DNA of 64,000 nucleotides from Raillietiella orientalis (GCA_036172245.1 JAYWIR010000033.1:248001-312000), one strand, 5' to 3'. Positions 1 to 64,000 are shown, numbered from the stretch's first letter. Program-made: numbers and translations. The notes: generated by a model from the sequence alone, not told the origin.

Positions 1-2348
1 AGGGGTTTTAGTCGGAATCTTGGGCGATAGTGGCCCCACAGTGTTTTTCTCTGCAGCTTGTCGAACTCCCTCGTGGTTTCCTTGTTTATCCTCGCAAAGG
101 CCGCCCCGAAGAGCACTTATGGAAGGAGTACTCCGTTCCAAATGTTGGCCTTTCGCTTCATTCCAAGGTCCGTTTGGGTGTACTTGGCTGCTTCCTTCGC
201 CGTTTTCCCTAGGATCTCGGTCCACAATAGCTTCGACGCGGAGACGTCGCCAATGTAGACACCCAGGTACTTGGCCTTGTCCACCGTTGATAATCCTTTC
301 CCCGCTAGAGTGGAGAGATCGAAGATTCCAACGGGCGAGAGCTGGCTTTTCTGGGCGTTGATCTTTAGACCCAGGCCTTGATCCATCAGGTCTACCACAT
401 CCAGAAACGCTCGTTGATTTCTCTCTCCCTTGATAAAGAAGAGTAGATCATCAGCGTATGCAAGATGGGTAAGACGCTGGCCATCGATTGTTATGCCTTG
501 CAGTCGTCCGCTCTTCTCGATAAAGGACGATAACGCCTCCATGTAGATGACGAACAGCATCGAACTTAGCGAGTCGCCCTGTCGGACTCCTCGTTCCATC
601 CTGATTGCTGCCGTCTCCTGGCCGTTGATTTTGATTCGGCAGTACTGGTTCTGGAGTACCACCCTCACGAAGTTGCTGAAGTGTTCCGGAAGGCCTAGCT
701 TCTCCAGAACCTTCAGCAGCATCCCATGGTCGATGGAGTCGGAAGCCTTCTCCTTGTCAGTGAACACCAGCGCCAGATTCTCGCCGACGTATCGGCTGAG
801 TCCGACGGTGGCCTTGGCACACATGACATTGTCCGACATGTAACGTCCAGGGACTGCACACGTTTGGACCGGAGAGATGAGCCTCGACATGACCTTGCCA
901 AAGCGGTTGGACCAGATCTTCGCCAACCACTTGGCATCCGAGTTCAGGATCGAGATTGGCCTCCATTGAGCGACCTGCGTGAGGTCGCCTCCTTTAGGCA
1001 ACAATCTCATCCGACTCTCGTAGAAGGACTGTGGAAGTCTTCCTTCTTCACGGATGCAGAGGGTCAACTGGTGGAACAAACGCAGGTAGGCATGCAAGTA
1101 CCGCTGATAGTGAGTGATGAGTACGCTGTCAGAGCCCGCTGCCACGTCCTTGCGTAGTTGACCAAACGCAGTCTTCACCTCGTCTTCGGAGAATTCCTCC
1201 TCCAGTCTGTTCCGCTGGAGGTCGTCGATCCTCTTCTCGAGATAGCTCAAGAAGGCCTGTTGACTAGAGCGACACAGCTGTTGTCGCCTGAAGTGTTTCG
1301 TGTAATGCCTTTGAAAGGCATCCACGATGTCCCCAGACGACTGTCGCTCTTGACCGTCGTACTGGATGCAGAAGATATCTGTTGCCAGATTTCTCTTCTC
1401 CAGCACGCCGACTTCCTCTATTATGTTATTGAGGACGTACCGTCTCTCGTACTGATCGAAGTACTTTGAGAGTGAGCGATCTTGGATGTTCAGCTCCCGT
1501 TACGCCTCCTGCCTCAAGCGCCTATCTCCGAACTGCATGTTTGCAAACAGGTGTATCCTGTGTTTCAGGCTGTCCCAGTCGGCGACTCTTCGGATTGTTG
1601 TTGCCTTCAGAATCGTCTCCAGGACAGCCTGATGTCCGGGATGGGTTTCGAACCAGGCGGGCATGCTGATGAGTGCTGCCCTGGTGCCTTGCCTCCCCCG
1701 AGGATTCTCCGTTCTTAGGGAAAACCGCACCAGGGGGTGATCGGACACCCTGGTCATAATGTGTCGAAAACCCTGGATGCGATTCCCAAGTTCGGTGCTG
1801 TGCAGGACGTGATCGATCGGCTTGTGACTTGCAGATCGTTACACCAGTCCGAACTCGTCGGATAACTGCCGATACGCCGTCCTTCCTCTGGCGTCTTCGC
1901 AGTGAGTGATCTCATCCAATATGTTGAGATCGCCAGCAACAATCACGACGTCCTTTGAAGCAACCTTTTCACGGAGTGCTGCATTCAGCGCCTCCGCTCA
2001 ACGACGTTTTAGCCTGTGCGGCCCGTACACGTTCACCAGGATGAGGTGAACAGTAGCGGACCAGGCCAGTCGCACGCCGATGATTCGTCCGGGTTGGGGA
2101 CAGAACACTTCCAGAATAGTGGGGGCCAATTTGTTCTTTATTAGGACCGCGACACCCTGCGTGTTCCGTTCTCCGTCGCTGACGAAAATCTTCCTGTTGA
2201 ATCGCCGTTCCATTTGCTGACTAATCTCGAGACCTATCTTGTGGGTCTCCTGTAGGCACACTATGTCTTGTTGTGCGATGGTCCGCACAATCCTTTTTCT
2301 TTTTCCCTGGTCGACCATACCGTTTACATTCCAGGAGGCGATGTTCAT
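1..2348 (-). pseudogene. ORF2 (APE-RT) of A1, disrupted
   Basis: Split across ORFs 1998-2483, 1500-1757 and 117-1406. AYADD lies at about 447-461. Stops and frameshifts present. Confidence 0.93.
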
Positions 2349-2389
2349 CCTCCTGGCGGTCGATAGGGAAGAAGCTATAAAAGGGGAAG

Positions 2390-4177
2390 ACGTATTTTTT
2401 TGCCTTGCTGAGCTTCTTCTGTCTGAGAGAGCGTGCTCTTCCAGACAATGAAGAAGCAGCGACCTTCTTGCTGCCGGCGTCACTCTCTGTTCCAGTGAGG
2501 TCCGTTACTTCCGCCTCCTCCGTCGAGTGTTCGGCCCGCGCGATAGGTTTTTGAGATAGCGTCTCTAGCTGGATCTTGGCGCAGAAGTTCGCCTTCACGT
2601 CGAGAAGCTGTTTATCTAACTTCTCGCGTTCAGCGACCTCCACCACCTGGTTGATGTTCTCTTGTGCAGTGCAGATCTTCTGCAAGATTTTCTCTTGCTG
2701 AGGACCGCTCTGCACCTCCATGATCTCCTCCGCCTGTGTTGCCAACACCTTTGTAGTCTCCAGAGCCTGCTGCGACACTTTAGTGGCTTCCTGTCTCTCT
2801 TCCTTCGCGCCTTCCTGCGCTACCTCCATCTTCTCGCCTTCTTGCTCTTCACCTTGTAGAATGAGAGGGGTTTCTTGCTCCTTGACGAGCATCCTCCTCT
2901 TTCCTTTCTTCCCTACCTGTATGAAGCCGTCTTCCGATTCCGGGACGGCTTCTTCCACCTTCTTCGGCCTTCCTGCCTTCTGAGGCTGTTCCGCCTCCTT
3001 GGTGTTTCTCTCTCTCACGGGCTAGAGGCCTCTAATCATTCTGCAGTTTGCAAACTCCACAGCTCCATTTGGCATGTCCGTGTTTCTTGCAGAAGAAGCA
3101 CACCTCCGGCTGCGGGCAGTTTCAGACTTTATGTCCTACTTTGCCCCAGCGGAAACAACGACACGTTGGGCAAGAGCCGGCCCTGTGGCCGAACTGCTTG
3201 CACCCTGTGCAGAATATCGGCGGTTGCCGGTAACGCACGTTCACTCCCTGGGATTGTTCGTCAAGAACGGCTAATCCAGGGATCACAGCTCCCTCTTTCA
3301 ACTTCATTATTGCGATCATGTCGCCAGAAAATATATTTCCAGAGAAGTTCTGGAATTCAAGGTCCAGAACTTCCCCATACTGCTCCAAAAAGTTCCACAC
3401 CGTTAGTTGCGGTGTGAGGATGGTAATGCCGTTCAGAAAGACGGTTGTGTATGGCATCTCGCCAACACCACAAACCATCCTCCCTTGTATATTGATCCTC
3501 TTCTGGATCAATCGCTCTCTAATCTTTTCACAGTCTGTGAAGACTGTGAACCCGTTGTTTGCTGGTATGATCGCCTGTATGCGATCAAAATTCATGTACG
3601 TTTTATCGAGGGACAGATAGAGCTCCCTGATATTACTGAACTTGATCAGCCCAGTTTTGAAAATGATGGGCTCTACATTCGGCCCTAACTCAACGATCGG
3701 CCGATCCACCTTTTGGACTTTACCGCATAGCGGCTTCCCGAATTTTCTTGGTGGGTGGACACTCGCTTGTCCAGCCGCCACCGACGCATAGGAAAAGGGC
3801 TGCGCCTCCGCAGCCAAACCAGATGGCGTCTCGCCCTGAACCGCGTGGATGCCCGCAGGTCCTCCCTGGGACGCCGCCGCTCCGAGCGCAACCCTCGACG
3901 TCGCCACCTTTGCCGCCGCGAGCGGCACCCTCGGCATCGCCGCCGCAGACGCGACCTTCCCCGCCGCGGGCACGATCCTCGGCGTCGCCGCCGTGGGCAC
4001 GACCTCCGCCGTCGTCGCCGCGGGCACCACCCTTGGCATTGCCGCCGCCGGCGCAGCAAAGCCCGCCGCGGGCGCGATCCTCGGCATGCCTGCCACCGCC
4101 TCGCCGTTGTCGCACGTTGCCTCCATGGCTTCCATGGGGGACGACGGTCTCTCCACTCCTCCTCTAGGTGCCTGCAT
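2390..4177 (-). pseudogene. ORF1 (gag-like nucleic-acid-binding protein with CCHC knuckles) of A1, frameshifted near 3120
   Basis: CTGCKQFGHRAGSC, CFRWGKVGH and CFFCKKHGHAKWSC, then a Glu/Gln/Lys-rich coiled-coil-like tail. Confidence 0.9.
3870..4090 (-). repeat. Imperfect coding tandem repeat of about 16-17 aa in family A ORF1 (also about 49020-49210)
   Basis: Units MPRIAPAAG, MPRVVPAAT, TPRIVPAAG, MPRVPLAAA. Confidence 0.8.
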
Positions 4178-4309
4178 CCTGGCAGCTGGTCTTGCTGCAC
4201 GGGATCACTGCAGGTCTTTTGCCGCGATCTCCTCGCCGCTTCTTTTTTTTAGTTTCGTTTGGAAAACTTCCCCTCTCAAGCACACACGAGCACAATTAAC
4301 TGATTACTT

Positions 4310-7300
4310 TGTCAAGCGCACAATACTGTGAGCCGCGGAGCAAGTTCAGCGACTTGGAAGGAGAGGAGCAATCTCCCGACTGTCAAGAAGGTGACTCCGT
4401 TGCTGCATTTCAAAGGCGTAGCGAAAGCAACGCCCCCAGAGAACGCAGCGAAAATCCCGGAGGTTTCCGCAACTACTGTCGCGGAAGCCTCCGAAAATCG
4501 CGAAGGCGAATGGAAAGTTGTGGAGAGGAGGAAAGAAAAATTATTAAAAAAGGCTTCGCAACATCCATCCCTGAGCTCTTCTAAAGGAAAGAGCAGTCGA
4601 GCGAATACGGAAACACGTGCGGCTTGTGCCTCTTCTCAGGAAAAAGCCAGCGCCTTCAACGCGTGCAAGTCCACTTCTGTGACCTCCGAGAAGACCATTC
4701 CGGTGCAATCGGACGGATGCAAGCGCACGTCGATCGTGCGAGCATCAGACTTCGCAAAGGAGTCCGATTGCGCCGACGAACGACGCGTAACTCGCGTGGG
4801 AGCGAGCGCCCGCAGGGATGAAGACCGTAGGCGTGACACACTCGCCGAGGAACGGCGAGTGCTCACCCTGGAACCAATAGGTTCTGCACCCAGGGAGAAG
4901 CACTCGATTACGTGCAGCACAGTTGAGGCCGGTGGCGACCGCGCCCTCCAGCCCGTCGTGGTGCTTACTGCCCGCTTGTCGGCTGAGGCGAGCACCACGG
5001 CCTCGCTTTCCCAACCGTGATGAGGGCAATCGCGTCTTCTCGTCGTGTTGCCGTGACGTCTTGGAACGTCAACGGGCTCCAACACGAGGAGAAGAGGCGA
5101 CTAGTGGCTGACGCTCTGCGCGCTTTCGACTTGACGCTCCTGCAGGAGATTCACAGCATCTCCGGTGAGCAGGCTGCCCAAATCGAACGGCGCGCGGGCG
5201 GAACGCTACTTTATAGGTGCAGCGTTGCACCTACGTAGAACGTCGCTTTCCTCGTGCAAGGAACTTTGGCGGAAGCGCTGCGCAGCGTTCGTTTCGACAC
5301 GGAAGGTCGAGTGGGACAGCTTGTACTTAAGTGGTCCGAGTCGATCGACCTTGTCGTAACCAACGTGTACGCGCCGAGCGGTGCTGGACGAAAAGCCGAA
5401 AGGATTGAGTTCTTCGGTACCCTTCAAAGCCATTGGCTCACTCGATCTCACCCTATTGTTGCCCATCTCATTGCGGGGGACTTTAACGTCCACCTGCTTT
5501 CCGAGAATAGATCCCACAAAAGGGAAAAGTTGCTAGCGGAAGAGATGTGCGCGTCCGTGCACGCGTGCACCTTGTTCGCTAGCGACCCTGTTATGGCAGC
5601 AACGCCGGACCACGTATACCTTGATGAACACTTGCTCTGTCGAGTGGGTCGGAGAGGTCCCGTGCCGTCCGTGCTTTCACACCACAACAGGCTCGAGTTC
5701 GAGTTGCTCCCGCCAGGCAAGGGGCCTCCAAACTGTTTTTGGAGGATGCCGGCAGACTGGCTAAGCCACCCGGAGGCGGCTGAGCATCTTCGCCAGTACA
5801 TCCTCGGCTTTGCCATAAGTGAGCTCGAGGACTGGGACGATCTGAAAAGATCGGTCCGCGAGTTCTGCTGCCGGTTTCCCTTGCACTAACTTCCGCGCCG
5901 CTTCGGAGAGGGCATAGCCAAAGCAGAGATTTTCTGCAGGCCCGCTCCTTTTCCAGGCGCGCGGACGTCGGTCGATTATCCGAGTACAAGGCCAAGGGCA
6001 AGCGCCAGGTCTGGCAGTCAGGGGCGACAGTTCTGCTCGACGACCAGAACCGGGAATGCTCGGCTCCAGCCGACGTGCGACGGATAGTCAGGCGCTATTA
6101 CTCTTCTCTGTAAGCAGAGAAGAGTAAGAACGCAGCCTCTCTCGGCTGCTTCTGCCGATTGATGCACCTGTTGTAGACGAGAAAGAACGCGCGCGTCTTG
6201 ATGAGCCCTTCACGGGAGAGGAAATTTCCTCGGCCATCTCGGGGCTCAAGAGACGATAGCGCCAGGCGAAGATGGGCTCCCCGCGGAATTCTTTCAGTGT
6301 TTTGCGGCGGAGCTCATCCCCCTGGTGCTCCAACTCTCGTCGCTGATGCGAGACTCGGGCGATGTCCCCGCCTCGTTTCGCTCAGCGAAGGTGCGTCTAC
6401 TGCCGAAAGGCGGAGATTTGCGCCAACTGAACAACTGGCATCCGATCACATTAGTGAATTGGGACGTCAAGTTGTTCTCGAAACTTTGGGTGGCGCGGAT
6501 GGGTAGGATCGCGGAATTCTTGGTAAGTCCGGAGCAGACGTACGCTGTTCCTGGGTGGTCCATGGACGCGAATCTCTTGTTCATCCGCACATGGCTGCAA
6601 TTGCAGCATCGTGTGGCGGTGGATCGTCGTGCGGAAGCGACGCCTTTGATCTCTCACCGATGGAGGCGCGGGACGCAAAGGGAGACACCGGGAGCCTTCG
6701 CGGCTGCAGTCGATCTACACAAAGCTTTCGATTGCGTGAACCAAAAGCTTCTTCTTGAGCTTTTGGAACGTCTGGGTCTTCCGGCATCCCTGTTGGCGTA
6801 CTTGCGCTCCTGCTGGCGTCACTCGATTACATCCATTGTTTTCAGTGGCTGTCGTGTGTGCGGCGTGCCGGTACGACGAGGAATTAGGCAGGGTGACAGC
6901 TTAAGCCCGCTGCTCTTCAGCATCTATTTTGAATTGGTGCTGGAGGCTTACAGGCTGACGCTAGCCAACCTGCCGAGCTCCTGTCCAGGTACGCCGGCCG
7001 TGGCAGCCTGTGCCGACGACCTGCTTCTCCTGTTGCCCATGTCCACCCCGGCGACATCGCTTGAAGACTTCTTTGAGTTGATTCGTCGCGGTGCGGGCGT
7101 GAGCGTTAACAGGAGTAAGTGTATGGTTGTTCCGGTGGGTGCGACGTGGGAGAAGCAGTCCGACTGGATCGACCTGGAGATACCCACGGTTAGGTACCTC
7201 AGTTACCTTGGCGTGCCGTTGGGCGACTTGTGCATCTCAGAAGCGTGGTCGGACTGCCTTCGGAAGGCAGAGCGTGCACTTGGCCCGTTTTCAGGAGGCG

Positions 7301-8943
7301 ACTTCGTCTTGCCGGAACGGGCCTGCATCTGGAACACCTTCGTTGCCCCCCTCCTCCGCTTCCTGTTTTTTGTTTGTCCACCCCCCTAGGAAGTCAAAGT
7401 CTGGGCGCAGCGCCTTCTACGCAAAGCGTCGTGGGGCGCTGCAAGATCCCGTGTTAGACTTAAAGACTTGGTGGCGCCGCGTCAGGATGCAGGCTTGGGC
7501 ATCCTCGACTTAAACAGCATCGAACTGCAGGTGCAGTTTCGCATGCTGCGGCTCTGTGCCAAGCTGTGGTTTACGCCGTGGTGCTTACCCGCACGCCTTA
7601 TACTGAGGCGTTACACGGGAAGCGAGGGACTGCTTTCGTTGCTACCCCACATTCGGCACAGCAGAATAGGGTTTGGCTTCCCGCTGAGGCAGCTGTCCTC
7701 ACTGCTGGAAGTCCAAAGCTGGATCTCCTGCCGCCCCATGAACAATAATTCATGGCGGCAGGAATCTTTTTCATCGTGGGCAGCTTCCGAATGAACGCGC
7801 CCGGAAGATCTTCGACGCCTGCGACTTCTCCTCAGTCATCAAATGGACGAAGTCATGCAGCACAAGAAGTTGTCGGATCGTCTGGCCGCCACACCACTCG
7901 CCGTAGCGCTGTCTTCCCTCAGGGCAAGCAACGACGGTTGCCTACCGGCGGAATAAGAGTTCTCCTGCAAAATAGCAAGAGTCAGTAAGCTCCTCGGCAG
8001 CTGGACGACAAAGGAGCTGGTGCAAGCCGCCACACCTCGGAATCAGGCAAAGGGACTGCTTCGGTGGAGCGAACATATAAGTGTGCCCTTCGAAGAGATA
8101 GTGGTTGTTTCCGTTTGTTTGGACAGCTCTGCGTGTCCCCTAAAGTGGGAACAAGATGTGCTGCTCTTTTTACATTGTGCATTGGACTGTAATAGGCAGC
8201 AAAGCATCGTTTTCGGAAGAGCTGCTTTGCCAAACTGTTTAAGGTGCGGAGAGATCGAGTCTTTTCCGCACCTTTTGCTGGACTGCGGTGAGCTCCGGGA
8301 ACTGTGGCGAAGGCTTACTTCGGCCATCATGCCACAAGGAGGCACTGCCATTGATGTGCTGCGGCGCTTCTTCAGCAGAAATGGACTTTCGGTTGGCGCG
8401 ATTGTCGCAACCATGTGTTGCGTTCGCGCCATAGTGAAGGCCCGCTACGCCCTGGAGTTGTCATCGCAGCGAAGGGAGGCTCACCTGCTTGCAGCTCAAT
8501 TCATGGAGAAGGCTTCAAGGTGGTCTCATCTTCGTGACAAGGTGAATGAGGACATCACCGGCATACATCGCCAGTTTACACACCTTTGAGAACGGCGTAA
8601 TCCGGTGACCTCTGCGACCTCTCGCCCACTCATACCCCGTCCCCGTTCGCTCGATAAAATTTTCGGTGCTCATGCTTTTACCCCCGTGTCTTCCAGAGCG
8701 ATCTCAAAGAACCTTATCCCGTCCTCCTTATTCATTGTTTTTATTTTATTCTGGTTTCTTTGTGTTTCCCGCCCCCCCACACCGTTCAAGAAACTATTAC
8801 TCTGGCCTGCGTGCCAGCAATATTCTCTTCATTTTTGTTCAGTCCTCGGTTGAAAGTTTGGTTTTCAACTGGTTTATTTTGTATAATTGCTTTTTTTGGT
8901 TATGTTATATGGAATAAACGCCCCGGCGTGACCGGGTGAGAAA
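4310..8943 (+). mobile_element. L1/Tx1-like element B1: 5'-incomplete ORF1, ORF2 and 3' UTR
   Basis: ORF1 tail ends SLSQP-TGA. Then APE (SWNVNG, LLQE, NVYAP, GDFN), RT (GIRQGDSLSPLLF, CADD), zinc finger CLRCGE..HLLLDC and the 3' AATAAACG hairpin. Confidence 0.93.
5020..8589 (+). pseudogene. ORF2 (APE-RT-zinc finger) of B1
   Basis: Multiple stops and frameshifts. The catalytic YADD is mutated to CADD at about 7009-7020. Confidence 0.92.
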
Positions 8944-10844
8944 TCTCCCGGTCTTGATCTGCGGAGATCACGTGGATCTCCTGCAGCAGCACCAGGTCGA
9001 AGAATGCCAGGGTGGCGGCCACGTCACGCCTCTTGCCGTCGTCGCTTAGCCCTTTCACGTTCCAACAGGCGATCAGAAGACGAAAGCGAGAGGCGATTCC
9101 CGGCATTATGGCAGGGAAAGTGGCGTCGCGGCACCTGCTGCGGGGCAGGTGTAGGACAGGTCCACGGTACGAGGACGGAGGCCTTTTCAGGCGCCTGGGG
9201 TACCTGTTCGTCCTCCATCCTCACCGTCCCCTCCGTGTCCGAGCGTGGAATTCTCTCGGGCGACAAGTCCCGGGAGTTTCCTACGCTCATGGCACCCTCG
9301 CTACCGGAAGCCATCTCTTCCCCTACGTCGGGAAAGACGATCTTCCGGGGCATTGTGGACTTTGGTCCTGCCTTTTTGCGGAGTGCCGCGGAGATGGATG
9401 CTGTGTTTCCGGCCTTCACCTCGGGGTCGGAAGTGGCCGACTCCTGAGGGGAAGCCGGACGCCTGACGGCCTTCTTGCCAGCCTTGGGGGCAACCGGCTG
9501 CAACGAGGCAGCCAGCTCCTCCGCGGCGCGCTCGAAGGCGACGTCATCGAGCGTGGGCTCGATGACGGACGCCGCCGCCTCGTTTCCCTCCTTGTTGACT
9601 TTGTCAACGGAGGGTTGAGCAGGGGCAGCAGCGAGTTCTTTAGCGCCGCATTCGTCGATGGCGAGAATCCGCTTTACAACGACGCAGTAGCTTTTAATTT
9701 TTTCGCGGCGCAGAGCGGTTTCGCTCCGTTTCGCCACGTTCTTTCCCTTCTTATGGGAGTTTTTCTTGGGATCGACCTTCTGGCACCCTGGCTCTTGACC
9801 CTCGCCCTCGACCTTTACGGCGTTTTTCGCCGGGGTCTCGGGGCTGGCCTTCACCTTGGTGGCGGAAGTGACCTCCTTAGCAGCAGAACGAGCTGCCGGC
9901 TATTTCCTCTTTTTAGCCTCGCGCTTTCTCGCGTTTTTCGCGGACACGACGCGGACTGTGTTTTGGGGGCACACCAGACGGGTGTGCTCCGCTTGTTTGC
10001 ATTGCTGGCACTGCACGCTCGGACACCTCATTTCAAGGTGACCAAAGCTGCTGCAGCAGCCGCAAAACTTTGGTTTCCCCACGTACCACACGTCAACGGA
10101 TTCACCGTTGACGGTGAGTTTGTGGGGAACCTCACATCCCTCGGAAACCGTCACTCGCGCTGCACCCAGGCCGTGAAGCAACCCGTCGTAATCGACAAAA
10201 GGAGTAGGCTTTCCCTACAGCGCGTTGACGTTTGGGAATTTTTTCAATTCGTTCCGGACGGCCTCCTTCGTCATCCGAAACGTGATACCGGTCAGGTGAA
10301 TGATCACCGACCGGTCTTCAGTAATTGGGAGAAGCGTCCGGCTGCCCATAATTACGGGGGTTCGCAAAAGTCTCTGCGCAAGAGTCGCCTCCTTGCAGAT
10401 ATCTTCAACAAATTGAACCCCGCTTCTGACGGACATAGCCAGAAGCTCCTCTTTCTGTACGCCGAGAACGCGCATCGCCTGTGAGAATGCGCGCGCGTTC
10501 TCGGGAGAATATAGACAGCCTACCTTATATAGAAGGGGTGGGTTATACCCCTCCTCCAGGTAAGCGCGCATTTTCGCCATAGCCGCTGGAGTAGGTGCCG
10601 CAGGCACGGCGTTCCAAGCCCTGGGTAGAGACGGGGCCGCGTCCGTGCTGGCGGGAGCCTCCACTGATTCGGGAGCCCCCACCTCCATCTGCTCCGGGGG
10701 CAATGAGGTCATCGCACCCGGATCCTCACCGGTGGTGATATCAGGCATTTCTGCCTAATCCTCCACCCACACCACGCACAGGCGCCAACGGAAATGGAAC
10801 TCAGGAGCAACGAAAAGACACGTCCGCTCGACGCTCCGGAATCT
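8944..10844 (-). mobile_element. Element D1: 5' end, ORF1 (10748-9106) and start of APE, cut by the 3' end of B1
   Basis: Closely similar to 14490-16405. Knuckles CGCCSSFGHLEMRC and CQQCKQAEHTRLVC. ORF2 starts MPGIASR..CWNV. Confidence 0.93.
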
Positions 10845-11060
10845 TCATTGAAACCCGGGTGCGCCGGGACGTTTATTCTAACGAATAAACTTATACAATC
10901 TGTGACTGGACCAGTAGTCCAGCCACGCCCTGGAAAGATATAGCCTGCCGGGCTACCGGTGCGCAGACCGGCGCGGTCGACCTCGGCAGCAGAGGGGAGG
11001 GGGAACGAAACAAAAAGAAAACAAAAAATAAACAAAAATCAGGGAGGGAGCGGGAAGGGA

Positions 11061-16309: not shown

Positions 16310-16405
16310 TTCTGCCTAATCCTCCACCCGCACCACGCACAAGCACCAACGGAAATGGAACTCAGGAGCAACGAAAAGACACGTCCGCTCGACGCTCCGG
16401 CATCT

Positions 16406-39945: not shown

Positions 39946-39946
39946 T

Positions 39947-49440: not shown

Positions 49441-49510
49441 CACTCAAAAATTGCCTTGGCAGTGGTTTTAAACACTGCCTTGGCGGGATATTGGGTATAG
49501 TTTTAAACTA

Positions 49511-52500: not shown

Positions 52501-53460
52501 AAAAGGCAGAGATGGCTATAGGCCCGTTCCTGGAAGGCAAGTTCGTCTTGCAGGAAAGGGTGTGCATATGGAACACTTTCCTTGCTTCCCTCCTCCGCCC
52601 CTTATTTTTTGTTTGACCGCCTCCCTATGTGGTTAAACTCCGGGCGCAGAGTCTCTTACGTGAGTCCTTGTAAGGCGCTGCGCAATCCAGGGTTGGCCTC
52701 AAAGATTTGGTGGCGCCATGCCAGGACGCAGGCCTGGGCATCCTGACCATCCACAAGATTGGACTGCAAGTGCACTTACGGCTTCTATCCCTATGTGGGA
52801 AATTGTGGCCTAGTCACTGGTGTGCTTTGGCTCGCCATATTCTCCAGCGATGTGTCGGCAGTGCAGGATTGCTTTCGCTGCTGCCGCGCAACCTTCGCCG
52901 GAGAACTGGATTTGGCTACCCACTGAGGCACTTGTCCTCGTTGCTGTTAGCCCATTCCTGGATTTCCTGCCGCCCCTCCGATTGGAATGCTTGGCAGCAG
53001 GAAGCTTTGGAGCACTGGACGTCCACTTTGGATGTACGCCCAGAGCAACTGCGACCCTCACAGGGCCTCTTACGCCAACCGCTAGGAGTGATCCTACAGG
53101 ACTGGTCGCTTTGGTCCCGGATAGTCGTCTCACCCATCGCCGCAGCGCTGTCTGCTCTCAGGGAAAACAACGACAGTAGCCAACCGGCAAGGTGGGAGTT
53201 CTTCTGCAGCATTGCAGGAGTGAGAAGACTGCTGAGCGGCTGCAGAACGAGCGTGTTGGTAGACGCTGCCACTCCACGTTACCTGGCAAAGGGACTTCTT
53301 TGTTGGAGTGAGGTTCTTGGATTACTCTCCGAAGATCTCGTGGTCCCTTCCTTGAGTGTGGACAGCTCCCTGTTCCCACTTCGATGGAAACAGGATGTTC
53401 TTCTTTTTCTGCACTGGGGATTCCAGTGCAATAAGCGCAGAAACTTGGTTACAGGGTTAA
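49511..53460 (+). mobile_element. Element B2: ORF1 tail and ORF2 from 50257, truncated before the zinc finger
   Basis: PSQP-TAATG, CWNLNG, GDFN, TPGEDGLP, DLQKAFD, YVDD. Confidence 0.92.
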
Positions 53461-53531
53461 GTCATCTTTTGGCTAATTATGGATTCTGCCACCTGCTTCA
53501 GACGCGAATCCCATAGCCTTGCTGGCAACTT

Positions 53532-56178
53532 GGCGGGCAAACGTGTTTTTTCCGCGCTCCTCTGCGCCTGTTGTAAAGGCTTTCGTTGTGTTAGTGTTTG
53601 TGTGTGTGGTGCATCTGCGGTGTCAAATAGCAGAAATTCCTAAGGACAACGTAATGCAGATCCGGGGGGGGAGAGGCTTTTTATACTCCCCAACCCATGG
53701 AGGAGGGTGCGACCGCTCCCACGGAGACAAGGGCAACCGTGCTCTTGAAAAAGTTGGCAACTGTCCAGTCGGAAGCGAGGGCTGCCGCTTTTCTGAAAAA
53801 GAAAGCAACTCCTCCCGTGCAAAAGGGTGCAACCGCGCCCTTGAAAAAGGGGGCAATCGCATCCTTGGATTCTTTTTCGGAAACGACGAATACCTGGAGC
53901 GCCATGGCTGCAGCACCATTCCCTGAAGCCATAGGCGAACAGTGTGCCCACTGGGATCAAGAGTATAAACCATTCTTGATTTATAAAGTAGGCAACCTTT
54001 TTGTTGGAAACACCGCTAGGAATTTGGAAAGAGAGCTACAGCGGTTCCAGGAAAGAAGCAGGTTTGGCACAAAGACTCCTGCGAACTTCCGTTAGGATCG
54101 AAAGTTGCCAGATCTTTCCTGTCCCGGTGGACAACTCAATAGCTGTTTACCTCCGCGAAATCACCTTACGGATGCCACTGAGTGCCGTCAGGGCTGATTT
54201 GAGGGAATTGGGCACCGTGCAGGCACTGTGAGCGAAGCCCAACAGACTCCGTATTTATGACAGACTTCTATGCGTGGTCGCTGCTGCGCGCATCACGGTT
54301 GCCAAGGACGTTGAGATTCCCCACGAAATGGTTGTCGACGGAGATACTATCGACATCTGGTATCTGGGCAAACCCAAATACTGCGCGTTCTGTGATGCTA
54401 TGGGACGTGTGTAGAAACGTTGTCTAAACATCACCTGGCGCAAGTGCGAGGCAACCGGGCGCACGGAAGAAATGTGCTCGTAAAAGACTCTTTGAGCGCT
54501 GGCTGCTGCTACAAGTGGCACGAACACCTATAAAAAGAAGCCTGGCAAGCCCTGGTCTATGTCCGAAAAATAGGATGACTCGGAGCCTGCCGAGAAGGCC
54601 GTGTCGAGCATTCCGTCTGCGGAAACGCATGCAACCGTCGCGGAAGGAGAAGAGCCGGACTGACAAAAGGTGGCCTACAAGAAAGGGAACTTGAAAAAGA
54701 AGAATAAAGTACAATGAAAACTAGCGAAACCCGAAAAGAAGCAGGGACTGAAATAACGCACGATCCCACTGGAGCGCCTTACAGACGCCGAACTGGCATG
54801 CGAACAGGCCGCTGCTGTGTGCAACAATGGCTACAGCCATGTCGTTAAGGGAACAGCAGCTCACGGCTGCATCGAGGGTGTGAGTTGCGTTGACGCGGAC
54901 TTTGCAAAAGCTGCCGTCGAGCTCGCCGCCGCCGTTCCGCAATCATCCGCAAAGGGCGAGAAGGCCGCTCGGAGTCCGGCTGAAAGGAGGTATCCGGATC
55001 TCGGACTCGGACCCGGAGGCCGGGCACGCACCATCTGTGTCTGCAACGCCATGGAAGATCGGAGGGAAAATCTGTAAACCGAGGAGCATCGTTTCCTCCG
55101 AGGAGAAGGAATCTTCCGAAAACGAGGGTGCGTCGAGCGTGGGAGGAATGGACTCGAGTCCTGAACTCCCACGCCCGGTCGAGACACAGTCGCTGCAAGC
55201 GGAGAGGGAACTCGAGGCGCCTTCAACTGCAGACGGGTGAGAAAGCATCCCGCCCAATGGGGAAGCGGGAGAGGCTGCATCACGTTCCTAGCAGTAATGC
55301 CGGGATACGCCACATGCCGTCAAATCCGCATCGCCAGTTGGAACGTCAACGGGCTTTGCGATGACGGTAGGAGACGAGAGATAGCTGCCACCTTACAAGC
55401 CTTCGACATTGTGCTACTGCTGGAGATCCACGAGATCTCCGCAGAACATGCGCGGAAGATCGAGAGGATAGCACGTGGTCAGCATATGTGACGATGCGGC
55501 CACCGCCGTACGCGAGATGTCGTTTTCCTTCTGAAGCCTGCCTTACAACGTTCGGTAAGGAAAGTTCGTTTCGATGAGACCGGTAGGGTTGGGCAAATAA
55601 CCTTCAGGTGGTCCGGCGCAAACGATCTCGTCGTCACGAACGTGTACGCGCCGAGCGGCGGTCACGTGAGCGTAGAACGGACGGCATTCTTTCGTGCGTT
55701 CCAGCGCGACTGGCTGTCGGAGGTAGGCACGCTCTCGGCGTACCTGATAGCCGGGGATTTTATTATTGGCCTGCTATCGGGTGCGGCGAGGACAGAGGTC
55801 ACCCCTGTTAACGGGATGTGCGCCACGCTGCACGCATCCAGCTTGTTGGCCTGGGAAGCCGGGATGGATCGGAGCTTGGACCACGTCTTCCTCGACGTTC
55901 ACCTGCGCTGTCGCGTGAGCAGGAGAGGTAAGATACATTCCGCTTTCTCCGATCACTCCCGTGTGGAATTTGTCATTCGCCCGCAAGGCACAGGGCCGCC
56001 CTCGGAGGCGTGGCGTCTACAGGGGGACTGACTGACGAAGCCAGGCGTAGCGGAACACCACCGCGCGTTCTTGCGAGGTTTCAGCCTGCAGATGCTCGAC
56101 GACTGGGACGATGTGAAAGTCTCGGTGCGAGAGTTTTGCCAGCTGTTCCCCAGGGACCGTCTTTCGAAAGGATTTGGT
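53532..56178 (+). mobile_element. Element K: 5' end, ORF1, APE and linker
   Basis: YKPFLIYKV, CAFCDAMG, TAATG at about 55294-55298, IASWNVNG, NVYAP, SDH. Confidence 0.88.
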
Positions 56179-56296
56179 GTTGCCACCCGGGTACGCCCTG
56201 GACGTTTATTGAAAAAAACTCTCTATAAAGCGTGGTATAAGGCCCCAGTGCGGCCTTAGACACGGGACCTTTCGGGAAAGCAAGACGCAGCCCGGC
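56179..56296 (-). mobile_element. 3' UTR-only fragment of about 120 bp with terminal hairpin
   Basis: AATAAACGTCCAGGGCGTACCCGGGTGGCAAC plus similarity to 56500-56580. Confidence 0.8.
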
Positions 56297-56461
56297 ATGG
56301 CAACTCTGCTGCTTCAGTTGATGAAGCTGATCCGAGACGAATGCGATGTTCCCGACTCGTTTCGGTCAGCCAGAGTGAGGCTCCTTCCGAAAGGAGAAGA
56401 CTTCAGTGATTTAAAGAACTGGCGTGCGATCACGATTGTGAATACGGACGCCAAGTTGCTA
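56297..56461 (+). mobile_element. G-type RT fragment
   Basis: DVPDSFRSARVRLLPKGEDFSDLKNWRAITIVNTDAK. Confidence 0.85.
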
Positions 56462-59355
56462 GTTGCCACCCGGTCACGCCGTGGCGTTTATTAGAAATTC
56501 TCTCTAATTCTTGGTACGAGGCCCCACTACGGCCAACTCAAAAGGACCTGCCGGGTTGTCGGTACGCAGGCCGGCGTGACTCTCCTTGGCAGCGGAAGGG
56601 CGTGGCGGGAAAAACAAAAAAAATATGCAACATAAAGGACAAAAAGTTTTTGGAGGGTTAAGGAGGGATCAGTGAACACTGGGAGGAGGGTCCATTTTTT
56701 CCAGGATGCCCTCGAGGTCCGTCCGTATAATTCTTAGGTGGGGCCAACTAGCCACAATTCTCAGGTAGCGGACTGGGAGTACGACGGCATCGCTGTCGTG
56801 GCTCGGTCTTCTGACGTCGATCCAGCATGTTACAATCCCACGGTCGCAGCAAAGTGCAGCCAGGGCAGCGGCTGGTAAAAGGGCATCCTGCACGAACAGA
56901 AGCCGGAAAACGTATCTGGGCTGTCTGCCCTTCTGGATCCCTAGGGAGGGACAAAGAATTTCCCACAGGGGTCGACGGGCAGCACAATCAACTAGGAGGT
57001 AAGGGAGAGTTTGCCGCTCCCCACACCTGATGCAGGCTGGATCTACTCGACCCCTAGGCCAGTGGTGGCGGCGTACGTTGCAGGGTAGGCCCCAATGCAA
57101 CAACAGAAGCACCGACTCCTGCCACTTCAGGGGAAGGATCCTCGAACCAATCAATACCGGGGGCCACTTCAGATCATCCGGCTGGATGCCGAACAGGTCG
57201 TCCTATCTCAAAAGTCTTCTCGGCTGGACTTTAGCGGTAGTGGCTTGTGCCAGTTGTTCCATGGACCAGCCGCTCATCTACTTCTGCTTGCCTGCGATGC
57301 GGCAGGAGACTTGCCACCTAAGCTGGCGGCTGCTGGAAAAGCGTCCTCCTCAAGAAGGGCATAGCCGTAGCTAGGGAAGTTGTCTCTGCCCACGTTCTCC
57401 TTGCTGGACACTCGATGATCTCTTGCAGATTGCAGCATGCGTAGGATACGTGTCGCAGGCATTTCCAGATCTCTTTATTTCTCTCGTTTATCTTCGTTCA
57501 CGTTCCAGCTGTTTCCTCCAGCCATGCGGAGGAGTTGGTGGGGCTGCATACCATCCAGCAGTTTTTCTAAGCCAAAGTTGGTATGAGTCCCAGGAGGAGT
57601 GCGCATCTCTTGAACTTCGAGCCATGGCACAGAAGATAAGACGCGAGACCCTCCGTCCCGGATACACGGCTGGCAAGGAGTCGGGCCGTAACGCACCTAA
57701 GGGTGCTCCATAACTTCGCTGCGAAGGCAAGGGTGCGTCATCGCAGCTGGATCTCTACTCGCTCCATCGTCAAGAGGCCGAGACCGCCATCTCGACGTGG
57801 AACTAACAAGTCCTTCAATGGAAATCGAGGCCTCGCTTTTCCCCAAAGGGCAATTCTCAGGAGGTCGTTCGTTCGTTTCTTCAACTCTCTGGGTACAGGC
57901 CAAACAAAAAGCAAGGAGCAGAGGATGGGAGCCGCAAACGCGTTCCACACCGTGGCCCCTTCCGGAAGAAAAAACTGTCTTCCAGGAACGGGCGGATCGC
58001 CGTTTTCACTTTTTGGAGGCAGCCGGACCACGCATTTCAAGGGGAATAGTTTCCCAACGGCACACCCTGATACTTCAAGCACCTGGCCGTGGGAATCGCC
58101 AAACAGAACCAGTCCTGTTGCCCAGTCAACGCCACACCAACTGTCACCACCGACGACTCCGCCTTGTTAACCCGCAGTCCTGTTCCACGGTTGAGCAGAT
58201 CAAAAAAATCTTCAAGCGCTTTCGCCGGGGTATAAATAGGTAAGAGGAGCAGAAGATCGTCGGCATAGACTGCTACTGCGGAAGTGCCTAAGCACATGTT
58301 CGGCAAAAAGGTTAAAGTCTCCCTATACGTTCTGAGCACCAACTCGAAGTAGGTGCTAAAGAGCAGGGGGCTGAAGCTGTCTCCCTGCCGTATGCCCCGC
58401 CGTACCGGCACGCTGTACGCCATTTGACCTCTGAAAGAGATATTAATTAGAGCGCTGCGCCATCAAGAGCGCGAGGAGGTCAGTAGGGAGAGAGCGAAGC
58501 CCAGAGGAGCTCCAGCACTAGATCCTGGTCCACGCAGTCGAACGTTTTATGCAGATCGACTGCGATCGCTAGAGCCCCCTTCTTTTCCTGTGTTTCTCAT
58601 CCTTGCCCGACTGACGCCCCCGAAGCAGGGCTACAAATCATTCCCTCTTCCTTATAACCTCTCTGCGCATTTAACCATGTGCTCCCGAAAAAGCGGTTGG
58701 CCTCCATACTTCGCCCAGGAACAGCGTAAGTCTGCTTCGGGCTAATTATGGAAATGGCAACCTGCCCGAGACGCAAAGACCACAGTCCCGCGAGGAACTT
58801 GGCGTCCGAATTCACAATTGTGATCGGACGGCAGTTGCTGAGTTTCCTGAGAGCTCCTACTTTCGTTAGGAGCCTCACTCTGGCTGATCGAAACGAGGCG
58901 GGAACATCGCTTTAGTCTTAGATAAGCCTTGTCAACTGAAGCACCAGGGGTACCAACCCTGCCGCAAAGCTATAAAAAAACTCCGCGAGCAGGCCGACCT
59001 CCTCTGGTGCTTTACGCCTCTTGAGCCCTTTGATACCAACGAGAATTTCGCCGGTGGTAAAAGGCTCGTCAAGGCTTTCCCTTTCTTCCCCCCCTATTGC
59101 CGGGGCACCGTCCGGGAGCCAGCGCCAAGAAGAATCTTAGTCCGAAGGCGCCCTGACGTAATGGGTGGAATAGTGACACCGCACGATGTGCCGTATTGTG
59201 GCCGGGGCCGAGTGCCCCCGTCTCTGATCGTCCAGCAAGCTGGCCGACCCGGATTGCCAGGCTTGACGTTCAGCCCCGGCTCGGTACTCTGCCAGACCAC
59301 GGATATTGGGGGGCCTCGCGTAACGACAGGCATACAAGGACGCCCTTTCGTTACG
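56462..59355 (-). mobile_element. Element L: G-type ORF2 3' portion and 3' UTR
   Basis: GIRQGDSFSPLLF, VYADD (about 58257-58270), CIRCGE. Terminal hairpin at 56462-56492. Confidence 0.92.
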
Positions 59356-61385
59356 GAAGGACGTGTTTTTCAGGCGCTTCGTCGACGAGACCCGGAAAGC
59401 GGATTCGTTTGTGAAGTGTGCATTTTTTCACATCGTTGGTGTCTCATGGCATCTTACCAGAGGACACCACGATGTAAATAGGCCTAAGGAAGGCTAGCCT
59501 CCCCTTACGGCCTATAGAATCAGGGGCAGTCACTCTGGAATCATCCCCGGCGACGCCGAGGACCTGGAGCTCCATGGTGTACGCGCCGAGCGTGGACACC
59601 TTGACGGAGCAAGCGGCTTACAGGGCCTAAGGATATAAAGCATCTCTGGTGTATAAGGTAGGACCTCTGTTTGATGTTCGCACCGCTCGGGCCTTCAGTT
59701 AGGTACTACAGGACTTTCTTGTAAGAGAAGAGGATCTTGATGTCCTCTCCGTACTCAGCGGGGGGAGCGCGTGGAGGTCGTCTGCAAAGACGTAGCCATA
59801 GCACAGCGCCTGATAAACCCCCGCTAAATGTGGATGGCTGGAAGATCCTATCGGTTAGCATGGACCGCTCCGTAGTAGTCAATCTAACCGCATACACAAA
59901 TCGAATGACGCGCTCTGCGGTCAATTCCCAGTTGACGAAATACGGCGAGGTACACGCGCTGTAGCCAAAGCCCACCATCTTCAAAGGCTTTAATAGCCAT
60001 TTTGGAGGCCAGGCCGCAGCGCGGGTCACTGTCAATGAGGGTGCTGGGTTGCCCCACAAACTGGAGGTCATGAAAGAATCCGTCGACATCTGGTACGTGG
60101 GGAAACCCGGCTATTGGGGTTACTGCAATGCAGTAGGGCACTTGCGCAAGCGGTGCTTGAACCCTGGGTGCCACTTGTGCGGGTTTAAGAGACACGTGCG
60201 TCGTGTGTGCCCTAATCGCCCCACCTCGGTGCCACCTGCTGCCAAAAAGGCGCAGGCCAAAAAATATGGACACGATCGAAAGACATAAGCGAGAAACTGG
60301 CCGGCCTCAACTGCCATCTCCTCTTCCTTCCACCCAGGCTTCGGAGAATAAAACCGCGGAGGACGCAGAAATGGATGAGGGATGGCAACTGGTAAAGGCC
60401 AAAAAAGAAAGAAAAGGGGTCAAAGGACTGGAGTAGAAAACGCACAAAAAGAACAAGGCCGGCAAAAAGAATAAAGGCGCGCCACTTTCAAAAAAACTCC
60501 CCGAGTGCTCGGTAGCACTGGATCGCGTCAGCGTTCCTCAGGCTGCCACCCAGGGCGACGAGCCTCCCCTCGCCGTATCCACCGTGCCCGAGGTTAGCTA
60601 CTGCGAACCCTCTGTGCAAACAGAGGGTTAGCCGCGAGACGCGCTCGCCTTCGGCAAGGATGCCGCCTTCGCGAAGGCGGCATAGGAGCTCGCGTTCACG
60701 CTGGCTGAGCGTGAGAACCCCTCACGCAAGGCCGTGCGAAGGCCGGCTCCGCAGAAAAAGGCCCCCGAAGGTGCGTCCGACCTGGAAGCCGGAAGTGCAT
60801 TCTCCTCCTCGAATGCTCCCCCAGGAAGTTAAAACGCAAGACTCAGAACCCCAGGAGGGGCCTCCCCTGAACCAGCGAGAAGGAGAATCCGGAAGCCGAC
60901 GCAAGCGTGGGAACCCCGGAGTGGGAATTCCCACGCGCGGAAACCGTCAATGCGGCCATCCCCATGGAATAGAGTGAACAGAGGAGGGAAGTCTTCCCTG
61001 CAGTCGTCGCACCTGAACAGCCCGCTTCCATGGAGCATAGCGAACAGGTAGGCGCGACCTCACCAGAGGGTGAACCGGCCGACGCGCGGTTATCCATGCA
61101 GGAAGGGGAACAGTTGCTCGACGCACCTGTCCCTCTTCCTCCTAGCGTCCCGCCTTAACAGGTGGCGGACGCCGCATCGCCAATTTCCTAGGAATAACAC
61201 CTGGGCTCGCCTATCTCCGTCAGATCCGAGTGGCCTGTTGGAACGTCAACGAGCTGCGCGAGGACGGCAACAGACGAGATACGGCTGACACCCTGCGTGA
61301 GTTCGACCTGGCCCTGCTGCAAGAGAACCACTTGTTCACAGTGGCAGACGTTCAGAAGATCGAGACGATCGCGGGAAGTCGGCTT
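59355..61385 (+). mobile_element. Element M: 5' end, I-type ORF1 and start of APE
   Basis: GGACGTGTTTTT at 59359; CHLCGFKRHVRRVC; VACWNVNELREDGNRRD..LLQE. Confidence 0.88.
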
Positions 61386-63296
61386 TTTACCACTCGGGTG
61401 CGCCGAAGCGTTTATTAGAAATTATCTGGGATCAGAGTTCCTGGACAAAGGGGAAAACAAGATACGAAAGGTGTGGGATCCCCGACACGCAGGTCGTTAT
61501 GGCGAAAGTCCGGAACGGGAGGAAGGGGACAACAAATACACTACTATAAAAAATAAAATTAAAAGTGTGATGGGCAGGGGACATGGGTCTTTGGTGAGTC
61601 CGTTCCTTTCTTTCAAAACCGGCGATGGATGCCTGCGATCTCTCTCCTTACGCCCTGTGGCAGATGGGCCCACTGGATAGCCAACGACATGTTTGTGCTG
61701 GTTCATCCGGTGGGCTGACAAAGGATGGTTAGCTTCTCCAACTCTCGGTGGGACTTGTCGATGGCGCGGGTGCAACACACGGTTGCAAGGACAGCATCCA
61801 ATGACAGGCCGCCTGGCGTAAAAAAGCGGCGCATCAATTCCCTCGCGGTGTCTTCCTGGTGCAGAAGAGCTGAGGCCAGCCTCTGTGAAAGTCCTAGAAG
61901 GAAACCGCTGTCCAGGAGCAGGTGCGGGATCGTTACCACTTCCCCGCACCTCTTACAGTTTGGGGAGACAACTCCCCCGGAAACACGGTTCGTCCGCTGG
62001 TGGGAGTGAAAACCCCAATGCACCAGCATGATCACGTCCTGCTTTCACGGAAGAGGGAACACAGAAGTGTTCAAACAGGAGGGAGGGACCACAAGCTCTT
62101 CCGGGGGTTGTGTTTACACTCAAGTGTTCACTCCACCGAAGGAGTCCCTTCGGAACGTGGCGAGGCGTGGCGGCGTCTGCCAGCTTGCTAGTCCTCCAGC
62201 CGCCAATAGGTCGTGTTGTTCCTGCAATGGTGTAGCCGACCTCCGATCTTGCCGGTTCGCAGCTGTCATCTCTTGCCCTAAGGGCTGAGAGGGCGTCGGC
62301 GAGCAGGATGACAACCAGGCGGGTCCACTTCTTCTGGCTGTTGCACACCTTGTCCACCGTGCAATACGGGGACAGGTGAGCGCAACGAAGTTCCAGGAGA
62401 AAAACATCCTGTTGCTTTGCCCAGCCATGCAATGGTTCCTGCCATCAGGCTTTAAAGTTCGTTGGGAGGCAGGAAATCCATTTTTGGGCTTCCTAGATGC
62501 CGGTAGAGCGGTTTCAAGGGGAAACCGATGCTTCTCGTCGCGCGCTCCGTGTGCGGTCGCAGCGACAGAAGTCCATCGCTGCCTGTGCAGCGCCGCAGAA
62601 GCTGGCGCGCGGGAGCGCACCACGGAGTGGACCAAAGGTCTGCGCACAGGACCAACATCCGAAGCTGCACATGCAGCTCGATTGTCTCCAGCGTGAGGAT
62701 GCCTAAGCCAGCATCCCAACGCGGGGCCGCCAAGTTTTTGAGGCGGATCCTGGTCCTCGCAGGTCCCCACAGAGCGTTCCTCAACAGGCTGTGCGCCTAG
62801 AGCTTGGTCGAGTAGGGAAGCGGGCAAACAAAAAGCAGGGGCACAAGAGGGGGGCAACGAAGGTGTTCCATATCCTGGCCCGCTCCGGCAGGACGAACCT
62901 GCCATGGTAAAACGGGCTCAGGGCATTCGAAGCCTTCCGAAGGCAGTCCGACCACACTTCCACTGGGCTGATGTTCCCCAGCGGAACGCCCAGATATTGC
63001 ATGGAGGAAACGTTCGGGATCCTTAGGCGGATCCAGTCGGACAGCCCCTCCCACGCTGCACCAATAGGTACGAGCACGCTCTTGCTCCGGTTTACGCTCA
63101 TGCCCGCTCCCCGGCGAATCAGCTCGAAGAAATCCTCGGGACTGGATGCCGGGGTGGTCATGGGAAAGAGGAGAAGCAGGTCGTCAGCATAGGCCGCCAC
63201 GTACGGCGTTCCTGGACAAGAGCTCGGCAGGTTGGACAGCGTCAGCCTGTACGCCCTCAGCACCAACTCAAAGAAGATGCTGAAAAGCAACGGGCT
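61384..63296 (-). mobile_element. Element N: 5'-truncated J/B-like ORF2 end and 3' UTR
   Basis: AAYADD (about 63181-63197), CKRCGE..HLLLDS. Terminal hairpin at 61384-61416. Confidence 0.9.
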
Positions 63297-63585
63297 TTAT
63301 ACCCCAGTGCCTTGTAGGCGGATATCTCAGACATGGCTTTAGTGCTAGGCGAGGCTATTATGGTGCTCAATCGTCCTCGGTTTGGGCGGCGAGAGGTATT
63401 CCGGGTCGGATGCCCAATATTCTCTAGGCTGTGAAGGTGGACAAACCTCCCCCACGCCTACCTCTATCGTGGTGTCCTCTGCCAGTGATGCTATCGGACA
63501 CTAGCGATGTTCCACAAATGAAAACACTACGAAAAAAACGCCTTCCTGTCGACTCACTCGCGAGCGAAGGAAAAACACGTCTGTT
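63297..63585 (-). mobile_element. 5' end fragment of an I-type element
   Basis: Reverse complement matches 37435-37720 (GACGTG..GAGTGAGTCGACAGGAAG). Confidence 0.8.
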
Positions 63586-63589
63586 AAAA

Positions 63590-64000
63590 ACACGCATCCT
63601 GCGCGGGCATTTGTCGGCTCGTATAAGGCTTCGCCCCGACGCGTAGTTCTATTTTTTGCTTCTTTTTTTTGTAGAGAAGAGGAAGAGTTTTCTGCGCATG
63701 CGCGCTCGCGGTTTTCACAACGCTTTTTGAAGTTTTGATGTTTTTTTCCCTCTATTCGCGGCGTTTATTTCGCGATGCGATACGCGCTTTGTTCCTGCGC
63801 TTTTGGATTTTTAGAAGGAGATCCGGGCACGTTTCATTTTGTGCCCGGGCTAGTGGCGGTTTCAGGAAGCGGCCGAGGGACACTTCGTAAGGTTGGTGAC
63901 CCTCCTGCTCGCATTCCGCGCACACAAGCGTTTGCCTCACAAACCAGAAACGTACGGTCATTCCATGCACCTGCAGTCGCGTGAGCATTGCCCGGAGATC
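63590..64000 (-). mobile_element. C-type ORF1 fragment
   Basis: TRLQVHGMTVRFWFVRQTLVCAECEQEGH matches 43085-43175. Confidence 0.82.

Follow-up and report, generated by a model that had tools for sequence, protein, structure and literature searches.

The nested LINE cluster and its elements

The window analysed here is a 64-kb stretch of the Raillietiella orientalis assembly (GCA_036172245.1, JAYWIR010000033.1:248001-312000, numbered 1 to 64000 below), and about 55 of its 64 kb are made up of one clade of L1/Tx1-like long interspersed nuclear elements (LINEs). Mapping by tblastn and nhmmer against a full-length copy called B, an A-type copy and five other fragments placed 25 LINE pieces, labelled S1 to S25b from left to right, in reference coordinates. 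Copy B (S4, minus strand, 10848-16405) is 5558 nt long, and all "ref" positions refer to it. The GC content of the window is about 55%, with the exception of a 37% GC island at 24-28 kb. A preliminary description had portrayed the window as a self-nesting domain of a single LINE clade, with elements alternating almost strictly in orientation. Our analysis partly supports this interpretation: the single-clade, self-nesting domain is sound, as every mapped end lies in or against another copy and the copies group in a reverse transcriptase (RT) tree, while the strictness of the alternation, the lack of target-site duplications (TSDs) and the loss of host halves had been overstated.

The stop-to-stop frames of the LINE fragments contain RVT_1, Exo_endo_phos, zf-RVT-like and zf-CCHC domains. 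In B, open reading frame 1 (ORF1) spans ref 90-1091 and has a pair of CCHC knuckles around ref 780-875, and ORF2, encoding an apurinic/apyrimidinic endonuclease (APE) and the RT, spans ref 1658-5341 with two stops. CX2CX4HX4C motifs are present in ORF1 of nine copies, and the A-type ORF1 gave a zf-CCHC match. The APE-type endonuclease is N-terminal in ORF2 (Pfam Exo_endo_phos, E=2e-10 at 50209-51000 and 4.7e-9 at 14205-14747), and the zf-RVT matches at the ORF2 C-terminus scored 26.2 and 23.0 bits, under the Pfam cut-off of 27.5. Inside ORF1, both A-type copies harbour three to five tandem copies of a repeat unit whose period is 48 bp or 27 bp (3929-4087 and 49034-49217).

Among solved structures, the closest to the RT half is human L1 ORF2p (E of about 1e-40, compared with 5e-14 to 1e-9 for R2 proteins). 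The best named protein relatives are pol-like proteins of fish and frogs with 25-33% identity, and plant proteins are also among the closest named ones; a word-based search of a set of 5.8 billion proteins yielded a single close protein (68%) among the 8000 best candidates scored. The nearest language-model cluster, "Transposon TX1", is a lead only. In a query-anchored RT tree of the copies with enough sequence, from which S7 and S9 were left out for low coverage, ten window copies cluster together against 16 sampled L1/Tx1-like outgroups (Shimodaira-Hasegawa-like support 0.87), with the A-type pair S1 and S17 as sister to the B-like copies. Identity among copies ranges from 65 to 94%; it is 94% for S3 and S4 and 86.8% for S1 and S17.

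The termini of the elements are conserved. The 3' ends carry AATAAACG, then a stem-loop with a 5-bp GC stem, then 5-8 nt ending in one to five A, and a long poly(A) tail is absent from them. A search for a strong conserved 3' structure found none (five pairs, one of them covarying), and a metagenome scan with the 3'-end pattern returned three loci, none of the three with LINE homology, which are chance matches. The B-like 5' ends read (CGTAGAGG)GAGCGTGCGGACGTGTTTTT. A conserved end motif is present on each of the nine 3' termini listed earlier (8943, 10848, 21919, 32928, 39950, 43882, 56179, 56462 and 61384) and on each of the five 5' termini (16405, 23145, 35630, 42400 and 59355), and all of them are genuine. 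The window holds at least ten intact 5' ends, among them three further ones at 37425, adjoining S12, at 53533, adjoining S18 at about ref 5040, and at 63583, adjoining an S16-like piece, all three on the same strand as the neighbouring copy. A 5'-end motif was also considered for the 5' end of S17 and was dropped, as the sequence there is that of the U4 small nuclear RNA (snRNA).

The pieces fall into two blocks. The left block (1-23.5 kb) consists of pieces that all keep an intact right end, 3' parts being on the plus strand and 5' parts on the minus strand. It begins with the A-type S1 (2-4299, minus), whose 3' end lies beyond the left window edge. After a gap of 687 bp (4300-4986), the first recognisable ORF2 sequence of S2 (4987-8942, plus) appears at ref 1722 and continues through an intact 3' end at 8942. 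This end interrupts S3 (8943-10847, minus), a 5' part covering ref 1-1919, whose intact 5' end at 10847 is joined exactly head-to-tail to the full-length S4. Further to the right lie S5 (16406-19327, plus; ref 2555 to about 5455) and S6 (19328-21918, minus), a 5' part covering ref 1 to about 2189, whose intact 5' end at 21918 is again exactly head-to-tail with the next copy, S7 (21919-23144, minus). The latter is internally deleted: its 5'-terminal 26-27 nt continue directly into ref 4333-5558. The block closes with the fragment S8 (23145-23487, plus; ref 2840-3191).

The right block (31-64 kb) is its mirror image: nearly every piece is intact at the left end, and 3' parts are on the minus strand and 5' parts on the plus strand. 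The fragments S9 (31248-32640, minus; ref 3454-4854) and S10 (32641-32927, plus; ref about 3158-3494) are followed by S11 (32928-35629, minus), a 3' part covering ref 2834-5558 with its intact 3' end at 32928, and by S12 (35630-37424, plus), a 5' part of about 1.8 kb with its intact 5' end at 35630. S13 (37425-39110, plus) is a 5' part whose end at about 37425-37431 adjoins the same-strand S12, S14 (39111-39949, plus) covers ref 456-1293, and S15 (39950-42399, minus) is a 3' part covering ref 3074-5558 with its intact 3' end at 39950. Beyond S16 to S18, described below, lie S19 (53533-56178, plus), a 5' part covering ref 1-2644 whose intact 5' end adjoins the same-strand S18; S20 (56179-56296, minus), a LINE remnant of 118 nt that comprises just the 3' terminus, intact at 56179; S21 (56297-56461, plus; ref 3050-3223), 87% identical to S5; S22 (56462-59354, minus), a 3' part covering ref 2652-5558 with its intact 3' end at 56462; and S23 (59355-61383, plus), a 5' part covering ref 1-1945 with its intact 5' end at 59355. 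S24 and S25a together form an internally deleted copy (61384-63583, minus) that joins ref 3632-5558 to the first 290-326 nt or so and extends from its 3' end at 61384 to its 5' end at 63583. The S16-like fragment S25b (63584-64000, minus), corresponding to positions of about 1095 down to 672 in S16 itself, leaves the window at its right edge.

A complete insertion, probable template jumping and probable nesting

Two inserts have both ends within the window, and one of them, at 43882-49567, also has both halves of its host. S17 (43882-49429, minus) is a full-length A-type LINE lying between two plus-strand pieces, S16 (42400-43881), with an intact 5' end at 42400, and S18 (49568-53532), whose ORF2 is recognisable from 50241 (ref 1739 to about 5040). 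Directly 5' of S17, on the same strand and beginning where the homology between S1 and S17 stops, is a full-length U4 snRNA (49430-49567, minus), fused to the LINE in the sense orientation; its match to Rfam RF00015 covers all 138 model positions (1-138) and scores 90.5 bits, with the gathering score at 46. The composite is enclosed by a TSD of 15-17 bp, whose left copy CTCGCGATCGCTAGG (43867-43881) forms the last 15 nt of S16 and whose right copy CTCACGATCTCTAGAGG (49568-49584) comes first in S18; the copies differ by two mismatches and a 2-nt indel. The right copy starts at the base adjoining U4 nucleotide 1, a boundary independently set by Rfam. To judge from the sequence, S16, S17 with U4, and S18 represent an ordinary TSD-flanked insertion made by target-primed reverse transcription (TPRT), which lies antisense in a plus-strand host with both halves preserved. 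The preliminary description, which had missed the 5' end of this element, stated that there were no clear TSDs, which is wrong for 43882-49567, and that the other half of the host is usually missing. The latter claim is too strong, as this insert keeps both halves and a recursive nest would put the others outside the 64 kb.

The U4 sequence at the 5' end of S17 is a sign of template jumping by the RT. Chimeras of this kind, with a full-length sense snRNA at the 5' end of a LINE inside one TSD, are known for L1, and PMC13174262 attributes them either to a switch of template or to ligation of RNAs. The U4-S17 fusion has the same form as U6/L1 and the other mammalian snRNA-LINE-1 chimeras outlined there, namely a sense snRNA with a TSD around the composite, but differs in that the partner is U4, the LINE is full-length rather than truncated and of a non-mammalian L1 type, and there is no long poly(A) tail.

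At 10847/10848 and 21918/21919, and thus for two of the nine 3' ends, a 3' end directly meets position 1 of a further copy. Exact head-to-tail dimers of this sort would result if the RT, on reaching the 5' end of a LINE RNA, jumped to the 3' end of a second one. Such dimers could also arise by double insertion at the same site, and the two routes cannot be told apart from sequence; the two exact joints are in this respect like the head-to-tail dimers of other retrotransposons without long terminal repeats, for which either double insertion or template jumping is considered.

Short stretches of microhomology are found at the internal deletions and at several 5' joints. The deletion joint of S7 (26-27 nt of the 5' end to ref 4333) has a CCG microhomology and that of S24/S25a (about 290-326 nt of the 5' end to ref 3632) an AAGC microhomology. 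Each of the internally deleted copies retains both of its true termini. Splicing as the source of the two deletions was rejected, since GT-AG borders are absent and 3-4 nt of microhomology are found instead. The 5' ends of S7 and S12 joined S8 and S11, respectively, at a shared host site (ref 2840 and 2834). The sense strand of the host has the sequence ...CTnTACGCCAGGG there, which overlaps the CGTAGAGGGAG of the insert 5' end by 4-11 nt. Overlaps were also seen at the 5' joints of S4 with S5 (about 5-7 nt), of S13 with S12 (about 6-8 nt) and of S25a with S25b (3-5 nt), and were ambiguous at those of S16 with S15 and of S23 with S22.

The junctions are not scattered evenly over the host copies: 17 of 19 lie within ref 1095-3494 of the 5558-nt copy B (Monte Carlo p=0.0013). 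The 3' joints lie at host ref 1293, 1482, 1919, 1945, 2644, 3223 and 3494. The five 5' ends listed earlier are antisense at host ref 2555, 2840, 2834, 3074 and 2652, that is, in the APE-RT linker or at the start of the RT, as had been stated. All five antisense 5' joints of B-like copies fall in ref 2500-3100, compared with one of eight 3' joints (Fisher p=0.0047, for a range picked post hoc).

Fragments with an intact 5' end and no 3' part always end exactly where the terminus of another copy starts, which marks interruption by a later insert; abortive reverse transcription cannot produce such pieces. Recursive nesting is expected to produce just the two arrangements seen, in which the left block is the right arm and the right block the left arm of Russian-doll nests, so most of the "missing" host halves would lie beyond the window. 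Insert and host DNA are about 65-75% identical, and the families with the most similar copies (S3/S4 with 94% and S1/S17 with 87%) occur as inserts in more diverged hosts, as a nest predicts. We consider it probable that the cluster arose by recursive nested TPRT of one L1/Tx1-like LINE clade into its earlier copies.

In such a process, the first nick may fall mostly on the sense strand of a copy already in place, in the region from the ORF1 end to the early RT (ref 1100-3500). The nicked host sense strand would then prime synthesis of the complementary DNA (cDNA) and the new copy would come to lie antisense; conversely, an antisense insert indicates a nicked host sense strand, because TPRT extends the nicked strand directly into the cDNA. 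Orientation would be flipped at each level of nesting, giving an apparent alternation. The RT would readily jump templates at RNA 5' ends, which could account for the U4-LINE chimera and the two head-to-tail LINE-LINE dimers, and the end of the cDNA may be joined to the target through microhomology, for B-like copies preferentially in the APE-RT linker. There the 5' joint might often be annealed away from the nick, with the intervening stretch of host probably lost. Such a loss between nick and 5' joint would make TSDs rare and 5' joints less strictly antisense than 3' joints.

Orientation bias and rival explanations

Of 23 adjacent fragment pairs, 17 are in opposite and 6 in the same orientation (two-sided binomial p=0.035). 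The near-strict alternation reported before is thus real as a tendency and overstated as a rule, and the three same-strand 5' ends at 37425, 53533 and 63583, missed at the time, also reduce it to a bias. As reported, seven of the nine 3' ends adjoin an opposite-strand LINE fragment and the remaining two adjoin an exact same-strand 5' end; every intact 3' end that landed within a copy, seven in all, is antisense (two-sided p=0.016). With elements as the unit of counting, antisense placement is seen in 13 of 16 firm cases (p=0.021), and in 15 of 18 once S1 and S5 are added. A preference for the antisense orientation can reasonably be taken as a lead, and it is most marked at the 3' ends. Among the causes suggested earlier, an antisense preference at the time of insertion fits best, with the seven of seven 3' ends in its favour, and the loss of direct repeats by recombination is unlikely at about 65-75% identity. 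A small-RNA locus, the third suggestion, would be a consequence of the layout and not the cause of the orientation.

A number of observations count against nested insertion with an antisense preference. All orientation tests are post hoc, made on one window that was flagged for its odd look, and they do not distinguish between a strict rule and a modest bias of 70:30 (p=0.25 for 13 of 16 when 0.7 is expected). Intact 5' ends inside a copy are antisense in six of nine cases (p=0.51), the sense-oriented joints being those of S13 with S12, S14 with S13 and S19 with S18. No common nick-site motif was found among the three reconstructed sites (GGAGAT^CGAACG, TTGCTA^GCAGGG and GCTAGG^AGTTGC), and it follows that no endonuclease rule explains the choice of strand. 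Host halves can be paired for one event only, and the TSD of that event has, by itself, a chance probability of about 0.04. The second insert with both ends in the window, S24/S25a, has discordant flanks, its 3' end lying in the plus-strand S23 and its 5' end in the minus-strand S16-like piece; a search for a TSD around it found none, and a simple nest cannot yield such flanks, which need a deletion linked to the insertion or a rearrangement. S19 and S21 were tried as halves of one host and rejected, since their identities to S5 (66% and 87%) mark them as different elements, and S20 between them is accordingly better read as a left host stub than as a tiny insert. The joint between S1 and its host passes through the 687 bp of DNA without LINE matches at 4300-4986, and the 3' end of S5 has no terminal hairpin, which is degenerate or missing. 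With regard to the strand choice, A exceeds T on the sense strand by 13-20%, so that a weakly A-biased nick preference could yield a moderate antisense bias.

The rival that fares best accepts the nesting and takes the orientation of insertion to be random, so that the antisense excess would be sampling noise in a window picked for its alternating look. Only 16-23 events can be counted, the 5' joints considered alone show the non-significant excess given above, the 3' ends drop to seven of nine (p=0.18) if both dimers are scored as same-strand, and the three missed same-strand 5' joints already weaken the pattern. We nevertheless consider random orientation unlikely: the seven 3' joints inside copies, which record the first nick, are antisense without exception, the elements are antisense in 13 of 16 cases, and the clustering of insertion sites along the host indicates that the choice of target is otherwise non-random too.

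Another possibility would be that the head-to-head pairs result from twin or convergent priming, in which two cDNAs from two LINE RNAs are made on the two sides of one break and joined by microhomology, each pair being a single event. The geometry of a minus-strand piece running from its 3' end to some position r, followed by a plus-strand piece from 1 to p with p smaller than r, fits S11 and S12, S15 and S16, and S22 and S23. Microhomology is indeed present at head-to-head joints, and antisense chimeras are linked to twin priming in the account of PMC13174262. However, the plus-strand partners without a 3' part end at the terminus of another copy, which priming cannot produce, and in the mirror-arranged left block 3' ends adjoin internal antisense sites, as at the joint of S2 and S3. 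The full-length S4 is only 71.5% identical to S5 over ref 2555-5455, so these two, the one overlapping pair, do not come from one RNA. The S17 event, moreover, is a plain nested insertion with a TSD. Twin priming appears to us an improbable source of the cluster.

The bias might also have arisen after unbiased insertion, if sense-in-sense nests were later lost through recombination between direct repeats and the inverted ones remained. Direct repeats can generally be deleted and inverted ones only inverted, and same-strand neighbours are few here (6 of 23). This explanation is highly improbable, as insert and host belong to different subfamilies that are much less similar than homologous recombination usually requires, two head-to-tail dimers survive, one of them 94% identical, and the antisense bias is strongest at the untouched 3' termini. 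It is barely credible that the junctions are assembly chimeras between repeats, even in a region that is nearly all repetitive: they fall at exact conserved termini and not within common sequence, the copies are 65-94% identical with exact repeats of at least 100 nt confined to S3 and S4, and one pair of junctions comes with a TSD and a U4 chimera.

Recursive nested insertion by TPRT thus remains our preferred account. As a tentative extension, which we think more likely to fail than to hold, the LINE lineage could home into its own relatives, nicking the sense strand at the end of ORF1, in the APE or in the early RT and anchoring the 5' joint of its cDNA by pairing of its own 5' terminus with complementary sequence in the APE-RT linker. 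The recursively inverted nests that would result could serve as a centromere-like or double-stranded RNA-producing domain in an animal genome.

Known systems and neighbouring DNA

A comparable behaviour is known from Zepp and ZeppL, L1 LINEs of the green algae Coccomyxa and Chlamydomonas, which are outlined as targeting their own copies and building nested clusters of one family (PMC3446292, PMC8226300). Clusters of the Zepp type are thought to be centromeric (PMC3446292, PMC8226300, 10.1101/2025.03.28.645958). The window shares with them, as far as these outlines go, the L1-clade affiliation, the insertion into own copies and the single-family nested clusters. According to PMC8226300, these clusters are arranged in tandem and consist for the most part of 3' ends. 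Where the Zepp and ZeppL arrays consist of 5'-truncated 3' ends in tandem, the window holds at least ten intact 5' ends and has 17 of 23 neighbours inverted. The hosts of Zepp and ZeppL are green algae, whereas the genome sampled here carries a mitochondrial insert with cox2-atp6-cox3; the comparison with Zepp is one of description, not of sequence.

Within the L1 clade, the Tx1 group of fish and frogs has the same APE, RT and ORF1 CCHC knuckles, and may also share the zf-RVT-like C-terminus, for which the matches here stay under the cut-off, though the identity to the best fish and frog relatives is only about 25-33%. Tx1-group elements are known for one fixed target sequence. The joints in the window, in contrast, lie at many host positions and do not share one target. 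A keyword search of a limited library, in which the original Zepp papers were not covered, brought up no account of a LINE that nests in itself with an antisense bias.

Green algae are the main known source of self-targeting LINE clusters, which appear to mark centromeres there, and a comparable single-family nest in what looks like an animal genome would mean that this way of life had more than one origin. The antisense preference, if true, would point to a strand-specific step in the choice of target; we know of no current TPRT model that predicts one. The window is also a compact natural record of template jumping and of microhomology-mediated 5' joining by a non-mammalian L1-type RT. All of this comes from one 64-kb window and is to be taken as a lead, not as a result.

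The ratio of observed to expected CpG is 0.8-1.2 in 28 of the 29 segments of the LINE blocks and 1.46 in S25b, with no sign of methylation-driven CpG decay. CpG decay was considered as an age clock and dropped, the ratio being about 1 across the segments. The 687-bp gap between the 5' end of S1 and S2 (4300-4986) had no match inside the window, no Pfam family and no Rfam match, and has no assigned identity; its plus strand contains an open frame of 238 codons without a Pfam family.

Two stretches in the middle of the window, 27900-31247 (GC 52%) and 23488-25400 (GC 38%), have no LINE homology, Pfam family or Rfam match and may be unique DNA or an uncharacterised repeat. ARAGORN found no transfer RNA in 23-32 kb. 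The AT-rich island (23488-28600) contains a decayed nuclear copy of mitochondrial DNA (25491-27869, plus) with cox2, atp6 and cox3, the usual order in animal mitochondria. Its frames are broken, its GC content is 37% and C strongly exceeds G; the decayed cox3 reading, used as a protein query, gave no matches. This copy is outside the LINE system and separates the two LINE blocks. S8 and S9, which flank the non-LINE stretch on opposite strands, are both cut off at its borders.

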